DNA of 64,000 bases from Eledone cirrhosa (lineage: Eukaryota). The notes below the pieces were generated by a model that worked only from the letters and a program-made list of their open reading frames with translations, did not search any database and had not been told where the DNA came from. The position numbers and the translations under genes are program-made. Positions 1,361 through 64,000 of this stretch are shown here, one piece after another. Location: positions 62,001-126,000 of the forward strand of contig CAXHJY010000739.1 in the NCBI GenBank assembly GCA_964016885.1. Reading direction: 5' to 3'. Each line of letters opens with the position of its first letter. The stretch's first letter is position 1.

Positions 1361-1480
1361 ATATATATTATTATTTTTTTTTTTTTTTAAGTAAACAGAG
1401 AACAAAAAACAGAAAAACGAAAAAACAGAAAAACAAATGTTATTATTATTAATTTCACGCTTGAGAGTGGGGGGTGGGGG

Positions 1481-1518
1481 ACGACGTTTCGGGCATAAGC
1501 CCTTCATCAGGAGAAAAG
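1481..1518 (-). ncRNA. Minimal hammerhead-ribozyme core of Penelope type, stem I apparently broken
   Basis: Minus strand reads CTTTTCTC-CTGATGA-A-GGGC-TTAT-GCCC-GAAA-CG-TC. No 3' partner strand for stem I is visible. Confidence 0.55.
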
Positions 1519-5867: not shown

Positions 5868-6082
5868 GATTTCTAGTATAGGCACAAGGCCAGTAATTTG
5901 GGGGAAGGGGAAGTCGATTAAATCGACCCCAGTACGTTACTGGTGCTTTATTTCATCGACCCTGTAAGGATGAAAGGCAAAGTTAACCTCGGCGGGATTT
6001 GAACACAGACAGTAAAGGGCCGTAACTCTATGTTGCAAAGCATGGTGTCTAACTCTCCACCGATACTGCCAATCCACCGCGT
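5868..6082 (-). mobile_element. tRNA-derived SINE (family A), near full length
   Basis: Minus strand GCGGTGGATTGGCAGTATCGG (A box) and GTTCAAATCCCGCC (B box), ending TAGAAATC plus (ATT)n. Flanked by (AAT)n on both sides. Confidence 0.9.
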
Positions 6083-6371
6083 ATTTTTTAATAATAATAA
6101 TAATAATAATAATAATGCTTTCTTTATTAACCACAAGGGTTGACACAAAGTAAGACATTAAGGACAATACAGGACAATACAGGACGGTACAAATGGGCAT
6201 TTCTGCGTGTAAAAAAAAACAAAAACAGAGGATGTAACAAAACAAAAAGAAACAATGTAAAATTCCCCAATAGAGACTTCCAAGGGACATTCGTGGAGAA
6301 AGCGCATTAAAAAAGCCATGGTGACCCTGACCACCAGGGCAAGTGCCCTCTCCCAGTTTTCCACCTTCATT

Positions 6372-9300
6372 TTACAGGCACATACTCAGGGCCATTCTTC
6401 CCTCTCTCACCCATCTTTCAACAAAATGCTGGGAAGAGAGCACTTCCCTCTTTACCCTGATTTTCATTTTCAAATGAAATTTGAAAAAGTTAATCAGGGC
6501 ATCACCGAAGAGGTAAGTGCTCATCTTCAGCCCTTTCAAATGCGTCCACCATACTATCTCTTTCGCCATGGCCACCAGACAGTTAAAAACTGCCTGCCCT
6601 TCCCAGCTAAAGGAAGAGGGTGGGGCAATCCTCACGATGGACTCAGCTAATAGCCGAATCCGTCCTACACACGACAACAGGTGTTCGACATAAACCCACA
6701 AGTCAGCAATGCTCGGGCACTGGACGAGTGCGTGCAGGACTGTTTCGCCGCCCTGCGCGCATCTCGGACATGCCCAGCTGACGGCACCTCCATGCCTGTA
6801 GAGTTTATCCTGAACTGGCAAAGCCCCTCGGTAGCACTGCCAGGCCAGGGATTTCTGGAAGTTGCCCTGGCCCGAAAGTTCTTCCGAAGAGATTGGCTAG
6901 TTGATTTTCATCGACGCCTAGAGTTTCCCCAAGTACGTCGTCACTCTTCCCCTCCACTAATCCTCTATAGAATGCCAAGGTGGAGTTTCCACTGATCACT
7001 TTGCCCAACTGGTCGAGGGCTGTGAGCGCCTGAAGACATTCCAGTCTCGAAGCGCTCACTCTCGGTCTTCGCTTGACCCAGGAATGCAGCTCCGTCAAGG
7101 AGACGAGCTGGGGAAAGACACGTCTAGCAAAGACACGTCTAGCAAAGACACGTCTAGCAAAGACACGTCTAGCGACCACACCTGATCACCGTCGAGGAAG
7201 AGGTGGAGATGTTGTAGCTTGAGCGCGTGTCTGCGCATCATCAACCACGGCATGCCCAGCTCTCCACATAGCGGGTGTTGACAGCAGATGAACTGCCTGA
7301 CCATCGGAGCGTATCTCTTCCACAAAAAGCGAAAGAGAAAATGCTCCAGCGCAGTCAGGCGAGGCTTAGGACAAGGCAGTAGTAGATGACGGACGCGATG
7401 TACACATTCGCCACCTCCGCTCAACCTTTCAGGGATAGCTTCCTCTCTGCCCAATTCTGGGTGAGAGAAGCCACCCTGCTCGTCACCTCGTCCCAGTTTT
7501 TGTCCATCTGGAGGTCCGGACCGAACCAGACTCTTAGCAATTTAACCGGTCCGTCCGTCCAGTGCCCGACGACGCTGTTGGATGGCATGGACCTGCCTCT
7601 CCAGGTGCTGAGCTGCAGGCCCACCAACTTTTCCTGGTTGATCATTGCTACTGTCACCGCTTCGTATTCTCTTAGTGTAGTGCCGATTGCCTTGATGTGT
7701 TTGGCATTCGACACCACTACAGTGAGATCGTCCGCATATGCTGACACAGATCTTCCGCATCCTAGTTTGCGCGGGACCCCCCTCAACGTCTCCAGTTTGT
7801 GCAGTAATGGCTCAAGAGTCAATACGTACAAGAGGGACGAGAGAGGACATCCTTGGTGGACCGAGCGCATGATGTTGAACGGTTCCGAAAGGTGACCGTT
7901 CACTCTCACCACAGAGCAGATGTCGCTGTGCATGGCAGCTATCCAGCCTCTGAAGATGGGCCCAAAGCCAGCCGCCCTCAGGACTGTCGCCAGATAACGG
8001 TGGTCGACCCTATCAAAAGCTTTCGACTGATCTAAATTGATCAAGGACCTACCCGTGCCAGGTTCCCTAGCTACCCTCTCCACGATGTATTGCATGAGGT
8101 GGAGGTTGTCATGGATGGATCTGTCTGGAATGGCTCATGTCTGCACGTCTCCCATCAGACCACCAACAACAAGCACCAACCTTTTTGCTAGCACCTTGGC
8201 CAAAATCTTGAACTCTGTGTTTAGCAGAGTTATGGGCCTGAAATTATCTATGTTAACCCCCTTGTTCGGATCCTTTCTCAGCAGAGCCACTGCTCCTCAG
8301 CTCACAGACCTGGAAATTCTCCTGTTCTGTTGCCAGTTGCAGTAGACGTCCGCCAAGAGGCCTCCGAACAAGTCTGGCATCTGTACGTAAAGTTCATAGG
8401 GCACACCATCCAAACCAGGTGATTTACCCCTTGTGCAGCCAGTCATTGCCTCCCTTACTTCAGCGGCTGTTATCGGCTTTTCGCAACACTCCGCCTCAGT
8501 GGCCGAGAGCCGCGGCAGTCTGTTGAGGTAGGCACTAAAGTCCATCCCTCGATCTGGCCCGCCGCTGCTCCCCGAACAGCTGAGCGAAGTGTCGCTGAAA
8601 AGCTTCACACATTTGCCCGGGATCGAGTAGCATGCGCCCGTCGTGGTCCACCAAAGACCGGATCGTGGCTTTGTTGCCACGACGCGCCTCCGCCACTTGG
8701 GCCCATTGAATGGCTTTCGTCCCCTCGTGTCTGAGAGCACGCACCCTAGCTCTGACAATGCAGCCTTCGTGCTTTGCATTGAAGAATTGGTCAAGGGCCA
8801 ATTTTGCTGCAAGTACGTTGGTCACGGTGCCTTTACTAACCGCCTCGTCTAATTTTCTAACTAGTTCTCCCTCTGCTCTATTTTTCTCTATTGCTAAAGC
8901 CTTATTAAACCTAATGGACTCTATTCTAATCGCTCTTTTCAGAGCAAACCACCATTTGTTGTTGACGATGGACCCCGTCAACACCCGCTTAACTAATTCG
9001 CTAATCCGGTCTCTGTAGGCCTTGCACGCTGTTAATGACGTGTTTAGTCCCTGTCTATGAAGCCTATCTAATTCAACCTCACAGATCACGAATTTGTGGT
9101 CCGTGTAGTCGACTATTTTGAAATGTGGGCAGCCTATGCTAGACCTATCTATTTCCCTATAAAATACTCTATCTAGATATGATTGGGATGACCCGATGCG
9201 GTTTATCCATGTCCCCATTGGCACATTCGGGAAATCCAGACGGTACCTGTCAGACAGTTGAAACCGTCTGAGCAGGTTTGCGAGGCTTTTACACCCTTCT

Positions 9301-9776
9301 CCCCTATCCGCTAATCCCACACAGTCCCAGCGTGCATCTAAGATCCTGTTCCAGTCGCCCACTAACACTAAAGAGTGGGACGTTCCAAGAAAGGTCTCCA
9401 GACACCGGAAGAAATCAGGCCACCCTGCTCCTATCGGGGCATAGACGGCCACTAGCCTGAAAGCTTGCCTGTCTCCGCTAGTCACGTTCAGCACCACCAA
9501 CTTACCTTCTGGGTCCAGGAAGATGGCCCGTATGGCGAGATCCAAACCTCTCCGAAAAAGTACAGCAACTCCTCCCCCCGATCCAGGACGGCTGGGAGAT
9601 GTGTACACATCGTAGCCGCAGAAGATCAGCGCGAAGGTTCATGCTTCAGAGATTCTGGTCTCGCTGATGGCCACCACATTTATGTTTAGTGACCTGAGGT
9701 CGTTGAGCAAGTGGCCCTGCTTCCGTGACAACCTCAGGCCACGCGCATTTATGCTACCTACTCTGAGTGAGGTCAT
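6372..9776 (-). pseudogene. Tx1-type LINE ORF2 (APE endonuclease, reverse transcriptase, C-terminal CCHC finger), frameshifted
   Basis: ATG at 9776 gives MTSLRVGSINARGL. ORF fragments contain VYAP, LVGDWN, YLDR, TDHK (APE); KSPGLDG, LDQSKAFDRVDH, QGCPLS, AYADD (RT); CPRC..ETVLHALVQCP. Several frameshifts and stops. Confidence 0.93.
7114..7173. repeat. 4 x 15-bp perfect tandem (AAAGACACGTCTAGC) inside ORF2
   Basis: Read directly; translates as ARRVF x4. Confidence 0.95.
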
Positions 9777-20769: not shown

Positions 20770-21960
20770 TTAAACAATCAATCTGGTGTGGCACCAGAAA
20801 AGATTGCACAGGTGGGTGAGGAGATACTCCCAAACCCTCAGTTGTCGGAGTGTTATGAACTGGATCCCATTGGGAGGGAGGATTTGCCTGTTGAAGCTTA
20901 GGCTGAAAGAAAGATCTCCCTGGGTGACACAAGTTTTTGCACCAAACAGAAAGCCCGAATATAGATCTTTTCTTGATGAAGTAATGGCAGTGTTAGATGT
21001 AGTTAAGACTGAGTTATATATCCTAATGGGAGACTTCAATGCACATGTTGGCACTGACCACATGTCATGGATAGGAGTGAATGGAAGGAACAGCAATCAC
21101 AATCTAAATACAAATGGCGAGGCCTTATTAGACTTATGTTCTAGTATCAGGCTCTCTATTAAGAACACCTTCCAGCACAAAGACATCCATAAATACACAC
21201 GGTATAGAGATCAATAATTGATTTTATTGTCTCTGATCTCATTGTTTAAGATGGAAGTTCGTGTTAAGAGAGGCACTGGATTGTCAACTGATCAGCACCT
21301 AGTTACCTGCAGCCTGAGACTATCAAAAGCCAAGAGAGCCCACAAAACTAGCAGGACCAGCTTGACCTACAGGATAAAGTGGAACGGTGATTACCAACAT
21401 GCGTTTGATGAGTTCGCTGCAGAGTGATGTACGGCAGGATTGAAAATCATTGCTGTGAAGACCAAGACACTTGTCCTTTGATGGCAGCCCATGTAGTGCA
21501 CTCTACATGCGAGTGAAGTTCCATTGAAGCAGTTAAAGTATCTAGGCGCAGTAATGCATTGGCATCCAGTTATCAGAAGGGAGGTAGGTGTAAAGGCCAA
21601 ACTCACTATCTTCAATTCGGTATTACTAAAAGGATATGGTTGCAAATACAAACAGCCAGAATGGGGTTCCTTCGAAGAGTCTTTGGAGTAATGTTACTAT
21701 ATAGAGTGCGTAGCTCAGAGACTAGAGATGCTACTTCTCCAAATTGAGAGATCACAGCTGTTATTACAGACATATGGTAAGAATGTCTTAGGAAAGAATT
21801 GTTGGACAGATTTTACAGGCAAAACCAGCCAGCAAGAGACCTAGGGGTAAATCTCAAGCAATGAGCTTGCCTAGGGATCCAGCCAAATCAATTGGAGACA
21901 GTTGTTATTAACAAGGACCCGCTGGAAGGCAAGCTTGAAGACTCTGCCTCCATGACCTTT
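20770..21960 (+). mobile_element. Internally deleted RTE-clade LINE (APE fragment joined to the RT C-terminus)
   Basis: VFAP, LMGDFNAHVG, HKYTRY and STDQHLV (APE), then directly GLKII..KT, KYLG and RMGFLRRVFG (end of RT and C-terminus). The RT core is missing. Confidence 0.8.
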
Positions 21961-30153: not shown

Positions 30154-32445
30154 TCAGATGGAAGGTTTGTGTTTATCAACCCCACTAGAGCCAACACTGT
30201 TGCCACTTGCACCTCTCTTGCTCTGCTTCGGCACAACATTGCAGGAGAATGCACTCTGTGTGTTTGAGCTGTTGTTAGGCCCCCACCCTGGTGAACCCCA
30301 CTGGGATGACATCGGGAAACCCCTTGGCCAGCTACCGTAGTTACCACCCCACGACTGCATCATCTGGTGGTGTGTGTATGACGAAGGGATCGAGAGCGGT
30401 TGCAGTCGTAAGGCTGCAGCAGCTGCAGCAGATGTATGGTGCGGGGAGATGGAATGGGGAGGGTGTGGGGACTGAGTGGGAGGTTGAAAACTCCTGTTGT
30501 GTGAGTGCGACTCATCTGCTGAGGTATTGTGTTGGTGCTGAGATGAATGAGGGAGGGGTTGATGTGGGGAGTGTGGTGATGGAGAAGACGACGGTGTATG
30601 CTGTTGTTGCTGGTGATGAGGTGAGGGTGAGTGATGAGAGTGGTGCAAGGGGGGAGAGGTGGCTGTCTGAGGTGGATGGATGCTAACTCTGGCTGAAGAT
30701 TTTCCCTTCCCTGAGAGAGGAGCTTGCTGACACAGTCCACTTGTGGAAGCAGACCCAGTGCTATCAGGAGTATTAGAACCACTACCTCCATTAGTATTGT
30801 TATTATTATTGTTGTTGTTGTTGTCATTAGTGTTGTTGGGTGTATTAGTTGTGTTGTTAGGAATTTGTTTGTTTTGGCTCAATGCTTTAGCACTAGCGGC
30901 CTGAGCACAGGCATGGCTTTGTAGGTTGGCTCTTTGAGCAAACCCCTTTTTACAAATGTCACACGTATAAGGTTTTTGAATGAGTGGCGGTGGCACTACA
31001 GGTATCCGAATACATTCATGATGATTTAAGTTAGACCTCTGACTAAATGACTTCTTGCACACACCACACGTATATGGCTTAATGCCAGTGTGTGTGCGCT
31101 CATGGATAGTAAGGTTAGCTTTTTGAGGAAATGTTTTTTCACAGTAAGAGCATTGATAGGGCTTCAGCCCTGTATGAGTGCGCTCATGTATATCCAAGTT
31201 AGCTCGCTGAGAGAATGACTTGTCACACACAGAACATCTATACGGCTTCAGGCCTGTGTGTACACGTTCGTGAATGTTTAAATTTGCACGCTGGCTGAAA
31301 CCTTTCAGACATATTGCACATGTGAATGGCTTTTCTCCTGTATGAGTGCGCTCGTGTATGTCCAGATTTGCTCGCTGTGGAAATGCCTTACGGCAGTATG
31401 AACACTGAAACGGTTTCTCACCAGAGTGCGTGCGTTCATGTATGTCCAAGTTAGCACGTTGGCTGAATGACTTGGTACATACTGAACATGCGAACGGTTT
31501 CTCCCCAGTATGTATACGTTCATGGATGTGGAGGTTTGCCCGGAGAGAAAACGCCTTGTCGCAGACAGAGCACTTATAAGGTTTAACACCTGTGTGGACA
31601 CGTTCATGAATATTCAAATTAGCTCGTTGGCTAAAACTTTTTTTGCAAATACCACAGACGAACGGCTTTTCTCCAGTGTGTGTACGTTCGTGGATATTCA
31701 GATTGGCTCTCTGAGGAAATGATTTGGGACAGAATGAACACTGAAACGGCTTTATCCCCGTATGTGTGCGTTCGTGGATATCCAGATTTGCACGCTGGCT
31801 GAAGCTTTTTTGGCAAAAACTGCAGCTAAATGGTTTCTCTCCAGTGTGGGTTCTTTCGTGAATCTTCATGTTTGCCTTCAGAGAAAATGATTTTGGACAA
31901 TAGCTACATTTGAATGGTTTCTCTCCGGTGTGAGACCTTTCATGTATGTGTAGATTAGCACGCTGCGCAAATGCTTTCCTACAGAATGTACAGTTGAAGG
32001 TCTTCTCCGTTGTGCTGGCTGAAATAGTCCCAGAACCTCGGCCACGACCCCTCCCTCCACCTCGACCCACCCCCTGGTTAGGGTGGGAGTTCATATGGGG
32101 TAAGAGGTGGGAGTGGCCGAGTGAGTGAGAATTGGAATGAATCGCATCTGCATTGGGTACATTGAGGCAGTTCTTGAAGTTGCTGCCATTTTTGCCAGAT
32201 TCCGGAAACGGCTTCCAGCACATACTGCCGTTGTCGGGCAACACCTGCTTGTGGTCAGTTGAATGCTGAGAGTGTGGCGACATTGGGCCCTGAGGTGTTG
32301 TTGAGGTAGGGGGATGTGTTGAAGGTGCTGATCCATTGTCATTGCAGCCATTCAAGTGATGATGGTCAATCTGAGAGAATCCTCGGTTGCAGATATCATA
32401 GTCGAAAGGTCTATCCACTGGGTACATGGACTGTACCGGGTACAT
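30154..32445 (-). CDS. Tandem C2H2 zinc-finger protein, 763 aa, single coding exon (11 C2H2 + 2 C2HC fingers; RGG-like patch; Asn, His/Pro/Ser and Ala low-complexity C-terminus)
   Basis: Uninterrupted ATG-to-stop ORF with repeated CxxCx3Fx5LxxHx3H and TG(E/I/L/V)KP linkers. Confidence 0.95.
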   Translation of the reverse strand: MYPVQSMYPVDRPFDYDICNRGFSQIDHHHLNGCNDNGSAPSTHPPTSTTPQGPMSPHSQHSTDHKQVLPDNGSMCWKPFPESGKNGSNFKNCLNVPNADAIHSNSHSLGHSHLLPHMNSHPNQGVGRGGGRGRGRGSGTISASTTEKTFNCTFCRKAFAQRANLHIHERSHTGEKPFKCSYCPKSFSLKANMKIHERTHTGEKPFSCSFCQKSFSQRANLDIHERTHTGIKPFQCSFCPKSFPQRANLNIHERTHTGEKPFVCGICKKSFSQRANLNIHERVHTGVKPYKCSVCDKAFSLRANLHIHERIHTGEKPFACSVCTKSFSQRANLDIHERTHSGEKPFQCSYCRKAFPQRANLDIHERTHTGEKPFTCAICLKGFSQRANLNIHERVHTGLKPYRCSVCDKSFSQRANLDIHERTHTGLKPYQCSYCEKTFPQKANLTIHERTHTGIKPYTCGVCKKSFSQRSNLNHHECIRIPVVPPPLIQKPYTCDICKKGFAQRANLQSHACAQAASAKALSQNKQIPNNTTNTPNNTNDNNNNNNNNNTNGGSGSNTPDSTGSASTSGLCQQAPLSGKGKSSARVSIHPPQTATSPPLHHSHHSPSPHHQQQQHTPSSSPSPHSPHQPLPHSSQHQHNTSADESHSHNRSFQPPTQSPHPPHSISPHHTSAAAAAALRLQPLSIPSSYTHHQMMQSWGGNYGSWPRGFPMSSQWGSPGWGPNNSSNTQSAFSCNVVPKQSKRGASGNSVGSSGVDKHKPSI

Positions 32446-32615
32446 TTTTGCCCTTCAAGTAACAGAAAAAGGAGAGAACATTTAGGCTACATCTAATCCA
32501 TTTGGATCACAGATCTTCCATAGAGTGAAGGATTATCTTAAATCCCCTCCCTCAAACTCTATTCAGCAGTAACTCACAGATTATTGTGTTCTTTGGTGTT
32601 CTTTCCTCACGTCTT

Positions 32616-48824: not shown

Positions 48825-56170
<7,346 letters not shown>

Positions 56171-57755
56171 ATATAAGTATGTACACGTACATACATATAT
56201 GTATACCGACGTACAGTAGTATGTATATATATATATATACATACATGCACACATATATACATGCACGTATGGATTCACCGAACATTTATTATAATGCTCG
56301 GTGTGTTTGTAAACAAACATCCCGTATTAAGCCGTAGTGTCTAGCAACCACCGTTGCTCGTTTGTTCAACACTGACAAAGGAACGCTGTACTAGTTTCAA
56401 GCTTGTTCAGCTATCGTCAGCAACGTATACCTTCCTGCCAGATTGTTGAACGTATATACTTACCTTATGCATATTAACGGCTGAGTAGCCCAATATGCAT
56501 ATCGAGTGGGTTAATCGGCCGGGTGCACCGAAAACGATAAACGGAAAAAATGAAACGATATTTCATTTCCCACTCTTAGTACGGTCGTTACTTAAATATA
56601 AGTATGTACACGTACATACATATATGTATACCGACGTACAGTAGTATGTATATATATATATATACATACATGCACACATATATACATGCACGTATGGATT
56701 CACCGAACATTTATTATAATGCTCGGTGTGTTTGTAAACAAACATCCCGTATTAAGCCGTAGTGTCTAGCAACCACCGTTGCTCGTTTGTTCAACACTGA
56801 CAAAGGAACGCTGTACTAGTTTCAAGCTTGTTAGCTATCGTCAGCAACGTATACCTTCCTGCCAGATTGTTGAACGTATATACTTACCTTATGCATATTA
56901 ACGGCTGAGTAGCCCAATATGCATATCGAGTGGGTTAATCGGCCGGGTGCACCGAAAACGATAAACGGAAAAAATGAAACGATATTTCATTTCCCACTCT
57001 TAGTACGGCTGTTACTTAAATATAAGTATGTACACGTACATACATATATGTATACCGACGTACAGTAGTATGTATATATATATATATACATACATGCACA
57101 CATATATACATGCACGTATGGATTCACCGAACATTTATTATAATGCTCGGTTGTGTTTGTAAACAAACATCCGTATTAAGCCGTAGTGTCTAGCAACCAC
57201 CGTTGCTCGTTTGTTCAACACTGACCAAAGGAACGCTGTACTAGTTTCAAGCTTGTTAGCTATCGTCAGCACGTATACCTTCCTGCCAGATTGTTGAACG
57301 TATATACTTACCTTATGCATATTAACGGCTGAGTAGCCCAATATGCATATCGAGTGGGTTAATCGGCCGGGTGCACCGAAAACGATTAAACGGAAAAAAT
57401 GAAACGATATTTCATTTCCCACTCTTAGTACGGCTGTTACTTAAATATAAGTATGTACACGTACATACATATATGTATACCGACGTACAGTAGTATGTAT
57501 ATATATATATATACATACATGCACACATATATACATGCACGTATGGATTCACCGAACATTTATTATAATGCTCGGTGTGTTTGTAAACAAACATCCCGTA
57601 TTAAGCCGTAGTGTCTAGCAACCACCGTTGCTCGTTTGTTCAACACTGACAAAGGAACGCTGTACTAGTTTCAAGCTTGTTAGCTATCGTCAGCAACGTA
57701 TACCTTCCTGCCAGATTGTTGAACGTATATACTTACCTTATGCATATTAACGGCT
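56171..57755 (-). repeat. Hammerhead-containing 424-bp satellite, left (inverted) arm, ~3.7 units
   Basis: TCGTCAG (reverse complement of CTGACGA) at 56414, 56838, 57263 and 57687; units are reverse complements of the right arm. Confidence 0.97.
56364..56451 (-). ncRNA. Type I hammerhead ribozyme (representative of 4 minus-strand copies)
   Basis: Reverse complement of the 58077-58163 motif; this copy has one extra base in loop II. Confidence 0.85.
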
Positions 57756-60700
57756 GGTTGCTAGACACTACGGCTTAATACGGGATGTTTGTTTACAAAC
57801 ACACCGAGCATTATAATAAATGTTCGGTGAATCCATACGTGCATGTATATATGTGTGCATGTATGTATATATATATATATACATACTACTGTACGTCGGT
57901 ATACATATATGTATGTACGTGTACATACTTATATTTAAGTAACAGCCGTACTAAGAGTGGGAAATGAAATATCGTTTCATTTTTTCGTTTATCGTTTTCG
58001 GTGCACCCGGCCGATTACCCACTCGATATGCATATTGGGCTACTCAGCCGTTAATATGCATAAGGTAAGTATATACGTTCAACAATCTGGCAGGAAGGTA
58101 TACGTTGCTGACGATAGCTAACAAGCTTGAAACTAGTACAGCGTTCCTTTGTCAGTGTTGAACAAACGAGCAACGTGGTTGCTAGACACTACGGCTTAAT
58201 ACGGGATGTTTGTTTACAAACACACCGAGCATTATAATAAATGTTCGGTGAATCCATACGTGCATGTATATATGTGTGCATGTATGTATATATATATATA
58301 TACATACTACTGTACGTCGGTATACATATATGTATGTACGTGTACATACTTATATTTAAGTAACAGCCGTACTAAGAGTGGGAAATGAAATATCGTTTCA
58401 TTTTTTCCGTTTATCGTTTTCGGTGCACCCGGCCGATTAACCCACTCGATATGCATATTGGGCTACTCAGCCGTTAATATGCATAAGGTAAGTATATACG
58501 TTCAACAATCTGGCAGGAAGGTATACGTTGCTGACGATAGCTAACAAGCTTGAAACTAGTACAGCGTTCCTTTGTCAGTGTTGAACAAACGAGCAACGGT
58601 GGTTGCTAGACACTACGGCTTAATACGGGATGTTTGTTTACAAACACACCGAGCATTATAATAAATGTTCGGTGAATCCATACGTGCATGTATATATGTG
58701 TGCATGTATGTATATATATATATATACATACTACTGTACGTCGGTATACATATATGTATGTACGTGTACATACTTATATTTAAGTAACAGCCGTACTAAG
58801 AGTGGGAAATGAAATATCGTTTCATTTTTTCCGTTTATCGTTTTCGGTGCACCCGGCCGATTAACCCACTCGATATGCATATTGGGCTACTCAGCCGTTA
58901 ATATGCATAAGGTAAGTATATACGTTCAACAATCTGGCAGGAAGGTATACGTTGCTGACGATAGCTAACAAGCTTGAAACTAGTACAGCGTTCCTTTGTC
59001 AGTGTTGAACAAACGAGCAACGGTGGTTGCTAGACACTACGGCTTAATACGGGATGTTTGTTTACAAACACACCGAGCATTATAATAAATGTTCGGTGAA
59101 TCCATACGTGCATGTATATATGTGTGCATGTATGTATATATATATATATACATACTACTGTACGTCGGTATACATATATGTATGTACGTGTACATACTTA
59201 TATTTAAGTAACAGCCGTACTAAGAGTGGGAAATGAAATATCGTTTCATTTTTTCCGTTTATCGTTTTCGGTGCACCCGGCCGATTAACCCACTCGATAT
59301 GCATATTGGGCTACTCAGCCGTTAATATGCATAAGGTAAGTATATACGTTCAACAATCTGGCAGGAAGGTATACGTTGCTGACGATAGCTAACAAGCTTG
59401 AAACTAGTACAGCGTTCCTTTGTCAGTGGTTGAACAAACGAGCAACGGGTGGTTGCTAGACACTACGGCTTAATACGGGATGTTTGTTTACAAACACACC
59501 GAGCATTATAATAAATGTTCGGTGAATCCATACGTGCATGTATATATGTGTGCATGTATGTATATATATATATATACATACTACTGTACGTCGGTATACA
59601 TATATGTATGTACGTGTACATACTTATATTTAAGTAACAGCCGTACTAAGAGTGGGAAATGAAATATCGTTTCATTTTTTCCGTTTATCGTTTTCGGTGC
59701 ACCCGGCCGATTAACCCACTCGATATGCATATTGGGCTACTCAGCCGTTAATATCGCATAAGGTAAGTATATACGTTCAACAATCTGGCAGGAAGGTATA
59801 CGTTGCTGACGATAGCTAACAAGCTTGAAACTAGTACAGCGTTCCTTTGTCAGTGTTGAACAAACGAGCAACGGTGGTTGCTAGACACTACGGCTTAATA
59901 CGGGATGTTTGTTTACAAACACACCGAGCATTATAATAAATGTTCGGTGAATCCATACGTGCATGTATATATGTGTGCATGTATGTATATATATATATAT
60001 ACATACTACTGTACGTCGGTATACATATATGTAGTACGTGTACATACTTATATTTAAGTAACAGCCGTACTAAGAGTGGGAAATGAAATATCGTTTCATT
60101 TTTTCCGTTTATCGTTTTCCGGTGCACCGGCCGATTAACCCACTCGATATGCATATTGGGCTACTCAGCCGTTAATATGCATAAGGTAAGTATATACGTT
60201 CAACAATCTGGCAGGAAGGTATACGTTGCTGACGATAGCTAACAAGCTTGAAACTAGTACAGCGTTCCTTTGTCAGTGTTGAACAAACGAGCAACGGTGG
60301 TTGCTAGACACTACGGCTTAATACGGGATGTTTGTTTACAAACACACCGAGCATTATAATAAATGTTCGGTGAATCCATACGTGCATGTATATATGTGTG
60401 CATGTATGTATATATATATATATACATACTACTGTACGTCGGTATACATATATGTATGTACGTGTACATACTTATATTTAAGTAACAGCCGTACTAAGAG
60501 TGGGAAATGAAATATCGTTTCATTTTTTCCGTTTATCGTTTTCGGTGCACCCCGGCCGATTAACCCACTCGATATGCATATTGGGCTACTCAGCCGTTAA
60601 TATGCATAAGGTAAGTATATACGTTCAACAATCTGGCAGGAAGGTATACGTTGCTGACGATAGCTAACAAGCTTGAAACTAGTACAGCGTTCCTTTGTCA

Positions 60701-63078
60701 GTGTTGAACAAACGAGCAACGGTGGTTGCTAGACACTACGGCTTAATACGGGATGTTTGTTTACAAACACACCGAGCATTATAATAAATGTTCGGTGAAT
60801 CCATACGTGCATGTATATATGTGTGCATGTATGTATATATATATATATACATACTACTGTACGTCGGTATACATATATGTATGTACGTGTACATACTTAT
60901 ATTTAAGTAACAGCCGTACTAAGAGTGGGAAATGAATATCGTTTCATTTTTTTCCGTTTATCGTTTTCGGTGCACCCGGCCGATTAACCCACTCGATATG
61001 CATATTGGGCTACTCAGCCGTTAATATGCATAAGGTAAGTATATACGTTCAACAATCTGGCAGGAAGGTATACGTTGCTGACGATAGCTAACAAGCTTGA
61101 AACTAGTACAGCGTTCCTTTGTCAGTGTTGAACAAACGAGCAACGGTGGTTGCTAGACACTACGGCTTAATACGGGATGTTTGTTTACAAACACACCGAG
61201 CATTATAATAAATGTTCGGTGAATCCATACGTGCATGTATATATGTGTGCATGTATGTATATATATATATATACATACTACTGTACGTCGGTATACATAT
61301 ATGTATGTACGTGTACATACTTATATTTAAGTAACAGCCGTACTAAGAGTGGGAAATGAAATATCGTTTCATTTTTTCCGTTTATCGTTTTCGGGTGCAC
61401 CCGGCCGATTAACCCACTCGATATGCATATTGGGCTACTCAGCCGTTAATATGCATAAGGTAAGTATATACGTTCAACAATCTGGCAGGAAGGTATACGT
61501 TGCTGACGATAGCTAACAAGCTTGAAACTAGTACAGCGTTCCTTTGTCAGTGTTGAACAAACGAGCAAACGGTGGTTGCTAGACACTACGGCTTAATACG
61601 GGATGTTTGTTTACAAACACACCGAGCATTATAATAAATGTTCGGTGAATCCATACGGGCATGTATATATGTGTGCATGTATGTATATATATATATATAC
61701 ATACTACTGTACGTCGGTATACATATATGTATGTACGTGTACATACTTATATTTAAGTAACAGCCGTACTAAGAGTGGGAAACTGAAATATCGTTTCATT
61801 TTTTCCGTTTATCGTTTTCGGTGCACCCGGCCGATTAACCCCACTCGATATGCATATTGGGCTACTCAGCCGTTAATATGCATAAGGTAAGTATATCGTT
61901 CAACAATCTGGCAGGAAGGTATACGTTGCTGACGATAGCTTAACAAGCTTGAAACTAGTACAGCGTTCCTTTGTCAGTGTTGAACAAACGAGCAACGGTG
62001 GTTGCTAGGACACTACGGCTTAATACGGGATGTTTGTTTACAAACACACCGAGCATTATAATAAATGTTCGGTGATACGTGCATGTATATATGTGTGCAT
62101 GTATGTATATATATATATATACATACTACTGTACGTCGGTATACATATATGTATGTACGTGTACATACTTATATTTAAGTAACAGCCGTACTAAGAGTGG
62201 GAAATGAAATATCGTTTCATTTTTTCCGTTTATCGTTTTCGGTGCACCCGGCCGATTAACCCACTCGATATGCATATTGGGCTACTCAGCCGTTAATATG
62301 CATAAGGTAAGTATATACGTTCAACAATCTGGCAGGAAGGTATACGTTGCTGACGATAGCTAACAAGCTTGAAACTAGTACAGCGTTCCTTTGTCAGTGT
62401 TGAACAAACGAGCAACGGTGGTTGCTAGACACTACGGCTTAATACGGGATGTTTGTTTACAAACACACCGAGCATTATAATAAATGTTCGGTGAATCCAT
62501 ACGTGCATGTATATATGTGTGCATGTATGTATATATATATATATACATACTACTGTACGTCGGTATACATATATGTATGTACGTGTACATACTTATATTT
62601 AAGTAACAGCCGTACTAAGAGTGGGAAATGAAATATCGTTTCATTTTTTCCGTTTATCGTTTTCGGTGCACCCGGCCGATTAACCCACTCGATATGCATA
62701 TTGGGCTACTCAGCCGTTAATATGCATAAGGTAAGTATATACGTTCAACAATCTGGCAGGAAGGTATACGTTGCTGACGATAGCTAACAAGCTTGAAACT
62801 AGTACAGCGTTCCTTTGTCAGTGTTGAACAAACGAGCAACGGTGGTTGCTAGACACTACGGCTTAATACGGGATGTTTGTTTACAAACACACCGAGCATT
62901 ATAATAAATGTTCGGTGAATCCATACGTGCATGTATATATGTGTGCATGTATGTATATATATATATATACATACTACTGTACGTCGGTATACATATATGT
63001 ATGTACGTGTACATACTTATATTTAAGTAACAGCCGTACTAAGAGTGGGAAATGAAATATCGTTTCATTTTTTCCGTT

Positions 63079-63081
<3 letters not shown>
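57756..63081 (+). repeat. Hammerhead-containing 424-bp satellite, right arm, ~12.6 units (putative non-LTR retrozyme array)
   Basis: CTGACGA at 58108, 58531, 58955, 59379, 59806, 60229, 60654, 61078, 61503, 61929, 62350 and 62774 (spacing 421-427 bp). Confidence 0.97.
58077..58163 (+). ncRNA. Type I hammerhead ribozyme (representative of 12 plus-strand copies); predicted cleavage after GUA at 58138
   Basis: Stem I ACGUUG (58102-58107) / CAGCGU (58139-58144), extended by CUGGCA..AAGG / CCUUUGUCAG and GUUCAACA / UGUUGAAC. Core CUGACGA 58108-58114. Stem II AGCU-AACA-AGCU. GAAA 58129-58132. Stem III palindrome ACUAGU. Confidence 0.88.
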
Positions 63082-63109
<28 letters not shown>

Positions 63110-63138
63110 ATATATATATATATATATGTATATGTATA
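63082..63138. repeat. (TA)n microsatellite, right flank of the satellite array
   Basis: Read directly. Confidence 0.9.
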
Positions 63139-64000
63139 TTTACTCTTTTACTCTTTTACCTGTTTCAGCCATCCGGCTGAGGCCATGCTGGGGCACCGCC
63201 CTTGTTGCTACACATTTTATCTCCAGCCTGTATAGGTTGGCCACTGGTGTAGGAGGGAGTTTGTTGCTGCTGCCCTTAGGTTTCCCTCGTGTCTTGCTGT
63301 GGGCTCATCCGGGATCCTGGATAACAAGGTGTCGAGATGTTTCTTAAAGACATCCACCTCCACGTCATGCAAGTCTCGCAGATGCCTCGGCAGCCTGTTG
63401 AAGAGTTGAGGGCCCTTGAATCCCAGGCTATTGCAATACCTGCTCCTTATTCTAGATGTGGAAGACGGGACCTTTGGCACCACACAGTGACGTCCTGTTC
63501 GACGGTTGGTCCAGCTCCCAATGCCAAAGTTTGGTGCTAGTCCCTCCAGGATTTTCCACATGTAGATCACTGCGTATCTCTCCCGTCTTCGCTCCAAGGA
63601 GTAGAGGTTCAGTTCCTTCAGCCTCTCCCAGTAGCTTGTCTCCCTCATCTTGGCAATCCTCTTGGTGTAGCTTCGCTGGATTGCCTCAAGCTCTGTGGTT
63701 AGTTTGACACTATGGGGTGACCACAGCTGGGAGCAGTAGTCCAGGCGGCTTAGGACAAAAGTCCTCCACAGTGTCAACATGGTGTCTCGATCTCTTGTAA
63801 GGAAAGTCCTCAAGATCCAGCCAGCGAATCGTCTACATGCTGTCGCCACCTTCATGATGTGTGAAGAAAAAGATGCATCATCGCTCATGTCTATGCCCAG
63901 GTCTCGTATCGATTTTGACACGGGGATATCGGTCCCTCCTGGTCCTGTGTAGCTGTGTTCCGCTATATTTGTGTTTGTGTTTGCAGGTTTGTATTGTAGG
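63139..64000 (-). mobile_element. CR1-clade LINE 3' end (C-terminal ORF2 region, 3'UTR, short repeat tail); continues beyond the window
   Basis: ORF 63217-63921 IRDLGI..FSSHI, SRLDYCSQLWSP, LEAIQR..Y.ERLKELNLYSLERRR. 3' end GGCGGTGCCCCAGCATGGCC..CTGAAACAG followed by (GTAAAAGA)n. Confidence 0.88.

Follow-up and report, generated by a model that had tools for sequence, protein, structure and literature searches.

Retrozymes and Penelope-like elements

Animal non-LTR retrozymes, found in coral, mussel and axolotl and including the newt satellite 2 class, consist of 150-450-bp tandem units that each carry one type I hammerhead. The main text of PMC7229834 further characterizes them by a GC content below 50%, the lack of an LTR, PBS or ORF, thousands of copies, and a predicted circle that is strongly self-paired. 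For their return to the genome, reviews propose an unidentified reverse transcriptase (RT) that copies the circle into tandem cDNA, with Penelope-like elements (PLEs) as candidates (main text of PMC7229834; PMC7761336). Vertebrate retrozymes have been proposed to be non-autonomous PLE derivatives; in Xenopus, 24 of 57 retrozyme families match transposons, nearly all of which are PLEs, and in vitro cleavage was seen in one of nine dimers (10.64898/2026.07.22.740005).

Passages of PMC8557442 and PMC3846280 describe PLE insertions with an inverted, 5′-truncated copy and a tail at one end. The tail is defined by two internal sites from which the PLE protein starts; in AT-rich DNA, the protein nicks and extends each of the two strands (PMC11167929). 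Non-autonomous elements are known among the Chlamys PLEs, such as MRC1, where the PLE machinery produces multicopy head-to-tail insertions (passages of PMC8557442).

The Eledone cirrhosa family presented here fits the known class of animal non-LTR retrozymes. Its filing there by the original prediction stands, given tandem 424-bp units with a type I hammerhead, 38% GC, no ORF, dispersal and a conserved fold. RNA expression has been demonstrated for the retrozymes in the main text of PMC7229834. That text mentions no inverted insertions, octopus or cephalopod, and does not describe two-arm insertions with fixed ends. The new point of the Eledone family is its insertion ends: two fixed 3′ ends, with a tail on one side only. 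Vertebrate retrozymes likewise have a PLE link, co-occur with PLEs and form multimer arrays; however, their link to PLEs is drawn from pLTR homology, with local amplification assumed and no mollusc sampled (10.64898/2026.07.22.740005), whereas in Eledone it is drawn from insertion geometry.

The Eledone cirrhosa locus

The locus lies in a 64,000-nt stretch of Eledone cirrhosa DNA, here called the window. The cephalopod host proposed in the original prediction is supported by a single host exon, which matches only an Octopus protein, at 73%. Sixteen hammerhead motifs in a 424-bp tandem array had been predicted at 56171-63081, and the motif is indeed present in all 16 copies of a 424-bp unit. 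The units are tandem, but they do not form a single array. Instead, the locus is made up of two opposite-strand arms that are joined head to head and inserted in (TA)n, with four and 12 ribozymes; therefore, no single transcript carries all 16. With unit base 1 defined as the first base after the predicted cleavage site (natural copy 58562-58985 = 1-424), the features are as follows.

48825..56170, no strand: left target flank, a 7.3-kb (TA)n-type microsatellite
56171..57756, minus strand: left arm, 3.7 units with 4 hammerheads
57755..57756, no strand: head-to-head arm junction, a 2-nt overlap (microhomology)
57755..63081, plus strand: right arm, 12.6 units with 12 hammerheads
58562..58985, plus strand: reference monomer from cut site to cut site, 424 nt, a predicted linear or circular RNA
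58680..58769, plus strand: long TA-rich hairpin (unit about 119-208), in each unit, its length differing between subfamilies
63023..63081, plus strand: 59-nt tail (unit 219-277), at the right end and missing at the left end, containing a hairpin
63082..63139, no strand: right target flank, a short (TA)n tract

The left arm passes into (TA)n at unit base 218, its outer (3′) end, and has its inner (5′) end at base 331. The right arm starts at base 39 and passes into (TA)n at base 277. "Tail" is used in the sense of PMC11167929 and passages of PMC8557442, and the 59 nt would be situated between two reverse-transcription start sites. Hammerhead cores on the minus strand start at 57693, 57269, 56844 and 56420, while the 12 plus-strand cores run from 58108 to 62774. 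The plus-strand cut sites, predicted 3′ of 58138 and every ~424 nt from there, are found at these positions with a spacing of 420-427 nt. Three of the 14 cut-to-cut units of the window have the majority sequence, and the others differ from it almost only by small indels.

The unit and its hammerhead

A coding or tRNA origin of the unit was rejected, since its longest stop-free frame is 62 aa and a tRNA search of the window returned no tRNA. A tRNA-derived SINE was rejected as well, there being no tRNA-like Pol III head. No LTR is present, the (TA)n directly adjoining the ends. A T6 run on the sense strand would be expected to stop read-through by Pol III.

The unit features the CUGANGA and GAAA boxes, NUH triplet, three helices and open stem I of a type I hammerhead. 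The parts of one example copy are given below.

58500..58586, plus strand: complete type I hammerhead domain, predicted from sequence and folding
58531-58537, plus strand: hammerhead core CUGACGA
58538/58551, plus strand: U-U mismatch at the base of stem II
58539-58550, plus strand: stem II
58552-58555, plus strand: GAAA box
58556-58559, plus strand: palindromic CUAG
3′ of 58561, plus strand: predicted cleavage, the cut site being spanned by stem I and three extension helices

The 6 bp expected for stem I are present, and it is extended by three helices rather than the two first reported. The hammerhead has two weak points. In the hammerhead consensus, stem II is closed at its base by a G-C pair, whereas the unit has a U-U mismatch there, the first U of which is invariant in 24 copies. 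Stem III has only 1-2 bp under the palindromic CUAG cap; an intermolecular duplex through this stem is computed at -6.8 kcal/mol. Additionally, loop II or stem I is altered by a 1-nt indel in 3 of the 16 copies (56420, 57269, 61929). According to the main text of PMC7229834, HHR_Amex1 likewise has a weak helix III with a palindromic tetraloop, and HHR_Amex2, which cleaves 22% as a monomer and more as a dimer, has a U-U at the base of helix II. The Eledone unit differs from both in combining these weak points in one ribozyme.

The proposed check against Rfam hammerhead models gave no match. A 201-nt stretch had no hammerhead match and one unrelated match (E=1), and none of the matches listed for 54000-64000 (150 of 226) is a hammerhead; these include miRNA-like noise from the unit and its flanks, the spurious miRNA matches being due to the TA-rich hairpin in the unit. 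At the gathering score, Rfam also misses a sister family whose stem II is fully paired, so that its null result says as much about the coverage of the models as about the motif. A custom type I descriptor matches the unit once, compared with one match in 20,000 dinucleotide-shuffled units.

Comparison of 24 copies with 76-100% identity suggests that the ribozyme is under selection. N7 is the sole core position that varies between subfamilies, and four pair types occur at one pair of stem I. Two-sided changes are found in 64 cells compared with 25 in shuffles, and none of 500 shuffles reaches 64, although this control overstates significance since the covariation comes from few related subfamilies. 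Folded as a circle, the monomer has an MFE of -144.1 kcal/mol; compared with 60 shuffles, z is -8.0 for this strand and -6.6 for the antisense strand, with both z scores inflated by the TA hairpin. No RNA run was listed as containing the family among 24 sequencing runs. In one run presumed to be RNA, the unit is matched over only 36-39 TA-rich bases. Four sequencing runs that were searched contain contigs of depth 2-31 only, too shallow to show the family in other species.

Dispersal and insertion ends

The family is young and dispersed, with 23,062 exact ribozyme cores genome-wide and arrays on many contigs, including long ones. A total of 195 arms were examined, yielding 69 divergent pairs (138 paired arms). 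Both ends could be classified in 43 of these pairs, 18 of which come from loci selected without regard to ends. The order is 277|218 in 23 pairs and 218|277 in 20, while two like ends (218|218 or 277|277) occur in 0 of the 43. Thus, the two arms of an insertion end at ~218 and ~277, leaving the 59-nt tail on one side only. The outer 3′ ends are fixed, and the inner (5′) junctions vary in position. Exact ends next to (TA)n number 451 at 277 and 1,409 at 218 across the genome, with 0 in reversed controls. The same one-arm-per-end rule is followed by all four insertions examined of the sister family, whose unit is 466-469 bp, and by the single complete insertion examined of an unrelated 310-bp family. 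The tails of the retrozyme families measure about 59, 70 and 35-45 nt.

The term "satellite" used in the original prediction is too weak for dispersed insertions with fixed ends. Three other readings are barely credible, namely an ordinary satellite, an assembly artefact (in either case with a motif that is dead or due to chance), and an insertion made by L1-type twin priming. The lack of an Rfam hammerhead match would suit the first two, as would the position of the window on a short, probably unplaced contig and the indels resembling read errors in its copies. However, the same anatomy recurs on many long contigs, and the other genomic loci with their exact cores, the covariation and the rarity of the descriptor in shuffled units speak against a chance or dead motif. 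L1 twin priming gives a variable second end, whereas here the second end of the insertions is fixed, and poly(A) is absent.

Head-to-head arms, a one-sided tail and the AT-rich or (TA)n target instead support mobilization by a PLE. EN+ PLEs, such as Poseidon of Anolis, likewise use an AT-rich or (TA)n target and two internal start sites, though their reported tails are 30-40 nt compared with 59 nt here, and the Eledone element has no RT/GIY-YIG ORF and forms many-unit concatemers in both arms (PMC11167929; passages of PMC8557442 and PMC3846280). The mobilization in trans that had been predicted is strongly supported by this anatomy. The element is very probably a non-autonomous retroelement, a non-LTR retrozyme, inserted by a PLE.

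Search for the PLE partner

Since it lacks an RT/GIY-YIG ORF, the element was rejected as an autonomous PLE. The partner search used ORFs taken from the genome and sampled three PLE families, a minority of those it contains. These are an 834-aa family (30 loci), a 775-aa family with older relatives (16 loci), and a 713-aa family (one full copy and fragments). The unit profile has no homology to any of these three. The short end of the 775-aa family resembles the retrozyme 277 end (16 of 2,000 shuffles, versus 987 and 1,225 for the other two families), a likeness that is post hoc, AT-rich and out of register and is therefore kept as a lead only; the tail of this PLE lies downstream of the short end compared. 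One candidate for the enzyme is a 775-aa PLE that is young and intact and carries a ~60-nt tail. The examined part of the 775-aa element contains no hammerhead, and its protein has no matching solved structure. In MRC1-type Chlamys PLEs, by contrast, the 3′ end is like that of the autonomous partner and the group is without canonical hammerheads (passages of PMC8557442), whereas the Eledone hammerhead is conserved.

Arm length and the RNA template

The cleavage site is crossed by 95 of the 138 paired arms, and 364 of 388 cut-site contexts are identical to the reference, with most of the others being point variants. Therefore, a linear monomer cannot be the template as such. Multimers could still be built from cleaved linear monomers if the enzyme, on reaching the 5′ end of one RNA, repeatedly switched to the 3′ end of another, but this is very improbable, given that template jumps are expected to add or lose bases at junctions and the cut-site junctions are clean. 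Such jumping would account for haplotype switches, as in L033, and for a weak excess of inner junctions within unit bases 1-20 (13/138; p 0.014 in a post hoc test that counts duplicates).

Units of opposite arms differ by a mean of 0.36 substitutions, compared with 2.98 between different loci, and private variants are fixed through both arms of L042 (18 units) and L103 (7 units). This requires a monomer bottleneck, which counts against an uncut linear multimer transcript serving as the template for two-strand PLE insertion, with circles, if made, as by-products. The uncut multimer is unlikely, though it has several points in its favor. The ribozyme is weak on paper, and the anole PLE used mainly uncut RNA in vitro, with the hammerhead being dispensable (PMC11167929). 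Furthermore, one variant switches part-way through the 16.6-unit arm of L033, which cannot be obtained from one circle without a template switch or mosaic assembly, and in L102 two variants are common to one unit type and the partner arm; both fit a mixed template. However, arms of up to 16.6 units and an array of the sister family with 31 consecutive motif matches would need as many uncut ribozymes. Sporadic variants are not seen copied between young arrays, with the exception of the N7 change (low power), and the conservation of the ribozyme would be left unexplained.

It is also improbable that insertions began with 1-2 units per arm and that unequal crossing-over or slippage then lengthened them in situ while preserving the ends. 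Local expansion after insertion is demonstrated for the old array L102, where one arm has an ABAB order of nearly identical blocks that differ from the partner arm at 18-23 sites, and is possible for L153, which also has an ABAB arm. Later growth is the favored model for vertebrate retrozymes (10.64898/2026.07.22.740005), and the median arm of the end-selected sample is only 1.1-1.5 units. Against it, more than one unit is present in 50 of the 78 arms taken from end-selected loci, and length is greater, not smaller, in younger arms (rho 0.35, p 0.002). Both arms are often long and almost undiverged, as in L042 (12.9+ and 7.2 units), L031 (5.0 and 11.7) and L041 (6.4 and 5.7), the long arrays coming from a best-match-biased search in which 39 of 572 candidates were scored. 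Neighboring units in young arrays have few variants in common, and even later growth still requires a template of more than one unit.

A model for insertion from an RNA circle

Taken as a whole, PLE insertion from a circular RNA template is on balance probable. The weak hammerhead, which probably acts as a dimer formed through the CUAG palindrome, would cut array transcripts, and the resulting 424-nt monomers would be ligated into circles. The PLE protein, probably a dimer, would bind the RNA at the tail hairpin and nick both strands of a (TA)n tract. Reverse transcription would be primed by one of these nicks at unit base ~218 and by the second at ~277, and the number of turns that each enzyme made round the circle would vary. 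Joining of the far ends of the two cDNAs through a few bases of microhomology would then yield a head-to-head insertion that carries the tail on a single side.

More tentatively, and with the balance leaning somewhat against it, one insertion could be the footprint of one PLE dimer on one RNA circle, with an RT at each edge of the tail, each primed by a different nicked strand, and both rolling. In that case, the length of the PLE tail would show how far apart the two active sites sit on the RNA. Self-priming on an antisense template would not be required for PLE insertions in head-to-head orientation, and the retrozyme arrays of animals would arise at full length as natural products of rolling-circle reverse transcription.

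Implications

As a mere new retrozyme family, the finding would be modest, for the class is already described. The arrangement of the copies, however, suggests how Penelope-like retrotransposons copy such RNAs into DNA. The Eledone family provides a genomic signature for the reverse-transcription step, with start sites to the base, and sharpens the qualitative remark on a one-ended PLE tail into a strict rule of one arm per site. For reconstitution, it also offers a small RNA, a simple target and a candidate enzyme.

Array Organization and Hammerhead Motif

The original prediction placed 16 type I hammerheads in one 424-bp tandem array. All 16 copies of the motif are found in 424-bp units across 56171-63081, but the units form two oppositely oriented blocks with their 5′ ends inward rather than a single array:

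56171-57756, minus strand: left block, 3.7 units, 4 ribozymes
57755-63081, plus strand: right block, 12.6 units, 12 ribozymes

The blocks overlap by 2 nt, and (TA)n flanks both sides. A 7.3-kb (TA)n-type tract with G nearly all on one strand (48825-56170) abuts the insertion directly. Unit numbering starts at the base 3′ of the predicted cut, with the natural copy at 58562-58985 as reference. The majority sequence is that of 3 of the 14 cut-to-cut units, and nearly all differences between units are small indels resembling read errors.

Both core boxes, the 4-bp stem II, the GUA triplet, and the 6-bp stem I are present as predicted, and three further helices extend stem I. A simple type I descriptor of our own matched 1 of 20,000 shuffled units. 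Rfam gave one unrelated match and no hammerhead on a 201-nt stretch, gave no hammerhead among the matches listed for 54000-64000 (150 of 226), and also missed, at gathering score, the hammerhead of a sister family of retrozymes. Two features weaken the motif. Stem II has a U-U at its base, and stem III is only 1–2 bp long and is capped by a palindromic CUAG able to pair between two copies (computed, -6.8 kcal/mol). For each feature there is precedent among axolotl retrozymes whose monomers cleave poorly and whose dimers cleave well (PMC7229834, in part). Covariation was scored in 24 natural copies of 76–100% identity (23 of 42 cluster representatives plus the window). Between subfamilies the core varies only at N7, with private hits in single copies; one stem I pair appears as U-G, G-U, A-U, and C-G, and another hairpin shows two-sided change in 5 of 9 pairs. 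The total is 64 cells against 25 in shuffles (0 of 500 shuffles), the copies falling into few subfamilies so that few events are counted. From sequence, we infer that the window hammerhead would be active. At ~1480-1510 (minus strand) lies another, minimal hammerhead-like motif whose stem II has 4 bp, of a kind known from Penelope-like elements (PLEs).

Family and Host

The exact 34-nt core occurs 23,062 times in genome G000 (3.0 Gb), with a reversed control count of 0, and arrays nearly identical to that of the window are found across many contigs (39 of 572 candidates gave 440 matches). Older subfamilies have units of 420–540 bp. The sister family, with a 466–469-bp unit homologous to the 424-bp unit (profile E 2e-21), has 9,717 motif hits genome-wide, a fully paired, covarying stem II, and 31 consecutive motif hits along one arm (a run of same-orientation units). 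An unrelated 310-bp tandem hammerhead family is also laid out head to head, with unlike ends in (TA)n. Loci of G000 carry the prefix L:

L173, L172, L174, L175, L045:1-735, and contig interval G000:C1:5738326-5752444: sister family
L066:1602-4139 and L141:4634-7000: 310-bp family

L021-L106 contain more than 10 further families of type I hammerhead motif, the genome being very rich in such motifs. One host exon has a single match among 296 candidates, a protein of Octopus vulgaris (73%, covering 69% of the query), which supports an octopus-like host as far as one exon can. At 30154-32454 (minus strand) of the window, one open frame of 766 aa encodes a C2H2 zinc-finger array and is probably an exon of a host gene. 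The window also holds LINE-type fragments with endonuclease, RT, and zf-RVT matches (5937-9638, minus strand, and 20774-21217) and a fragment that is LINE-like by eye, without a Pfam match (63217-63999).

The window family belongs to the known retrozyme class. Neither a cephalopod retrozyme nor two-arm retrozyme insertions were found described in the openly available papers searched. The main text of the principal retrozyme paper has no mention of octopus, cephalopod, or inverted; its supplement holds further invertebrate examples, among which there may be a cephalopod (PMC7229834).

Insertion Ends

The 85 loci and the window yielded 195 arms and 69 head-to-head pairs. Outer (3′) arm ends fall at two sites, unit bases ~218 and ~277, both entering (TA)n with a 3–5 nt TA overlap. 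Both ends could be classed in 43 pairs, including two local duplicates (L050, L076): 23 are 277|218, 20 are 218|277, and none has like ends. Eighteen of the 43 come from loci chosen by identity with no end criterion, and the others were chosen by one end with the other free. The remaining 26 pairs are cut by a locus edge (6) or have an end broken by divergence or rearrangement (20). Inner junctions are scattered over the unit, mostly with 1–7 nt overlap or short filler, and single-arm insertions occur too. Genome-wide, exact ends adjoining (TA)n number 451 for the 277-end and 1,409 for the 218-end. The unlike-ends rule is kept at homologous positions in 8–9 insertions, judged by eye, of an older ~480-bp subfamily, in 4 of 4 examined insertions of the sister family (469 bp), and in the one complete insertion examined of the 310-bp family.

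PLE insertions often comprise an inverted 5′-truncated copy and a 30–40-bp tail at one end only (PMC8557442, PMC3846280, both in part). The end geometry of the window retrozyme is this PLE insertion signature with a 59-nt tail. When purified, an anole PLE protein, a predicted dimer, nicks AT-rich DNA on both strands and extends each of them. It begins reverse transcription at two internal positions of the RNA, and the tail is the interval between these (PMC11167929, in part). Because internal initiation needs no free RNA 3′ end, a circle would be usable as template.

Template and Array Growth

Since 95 of 138 paired arms extend beyond the cut site, and 364 of 388 cut-site contexts are identical to the reference, a linear monomer template is excluded unless jumps are seamless. 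Unit pairs from the same arm differ by 0.72 substitutions on average, those from opposite arms by 0.36, and those from different loci by 2.98 (262 full units, 33 loci); in L042 and L103 private variants are fixed throughout both arms. Of 78 arms at end-selected loci, 50 are longer than one unit and 12 reach two; the younger the arm, the longer it tends to be (rho 0.35, p 0.002), though old arms may be under-measured. The pattern agrees with a monomer bottleneck and subsequent repeated copying as the element inserts. Against it stand L033, in which one arm changes variant along its length, and the alternating arrays of L102 and L153 described below. PLE-type internal starts on a circular RNA copied repeatedly would give multi-unit arms at insertion, and circular RNA is, on balance, the probable template. 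An uncut multimer RNA is rather unlikely to have served instead; in vitro the anole enzyme did use uncut RNA (PMC11167929, in part). Growth of arrays mainly in place is improbable, although the arm in L102 did grow after insertion and the array in L153 may have. Both consist of strictly alternating A/B units ~3% apart (higher-order repeat):

L102:21-4030: ABAB array
L153:2337-4273: ABAB array

Candidate Partners

According to part of a review, retrozyme repeats show no motif indicating a partner (PMC7761336). A 2026 preprint, in the part covered, ties vertebrate retrozymes to PLEs by homology to the PLE terminal repeat (pLTR) and assumes local amplification. The genome carries at least three PLE families whose frames are intact (834, 713, and 775 aa), and no profile homology to the unit was found in the portions examined:

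L170, 1147-3471, minus strand: 775-aa PLE, intact frame, ~60-nt tail
L135:538-3039 and L171: 834- and 713-aa PLE families, intact frames, YRDD motif

The 834-aa element has an Asn/Thr-rich insert after the RT core, and the 713-aa family a tail of about 90 nt. The 775-aa protein carries RT, thumb, and GIY-YIG, and from its motifs we take the family to be Neptune-like. It is young, inserting in (TA)n in many near-identical copies, and its two ends lie 59–63 nt apart; each of the two-arm loci examined, two in all, has a short end and a long end. The portion of the element examined holds no hammerhead. This family is put forward tentatively as a possible partner of the retrozyme. The insertion anatomy of the window family makes the unproven step of retrozyme mobilization directly testable.
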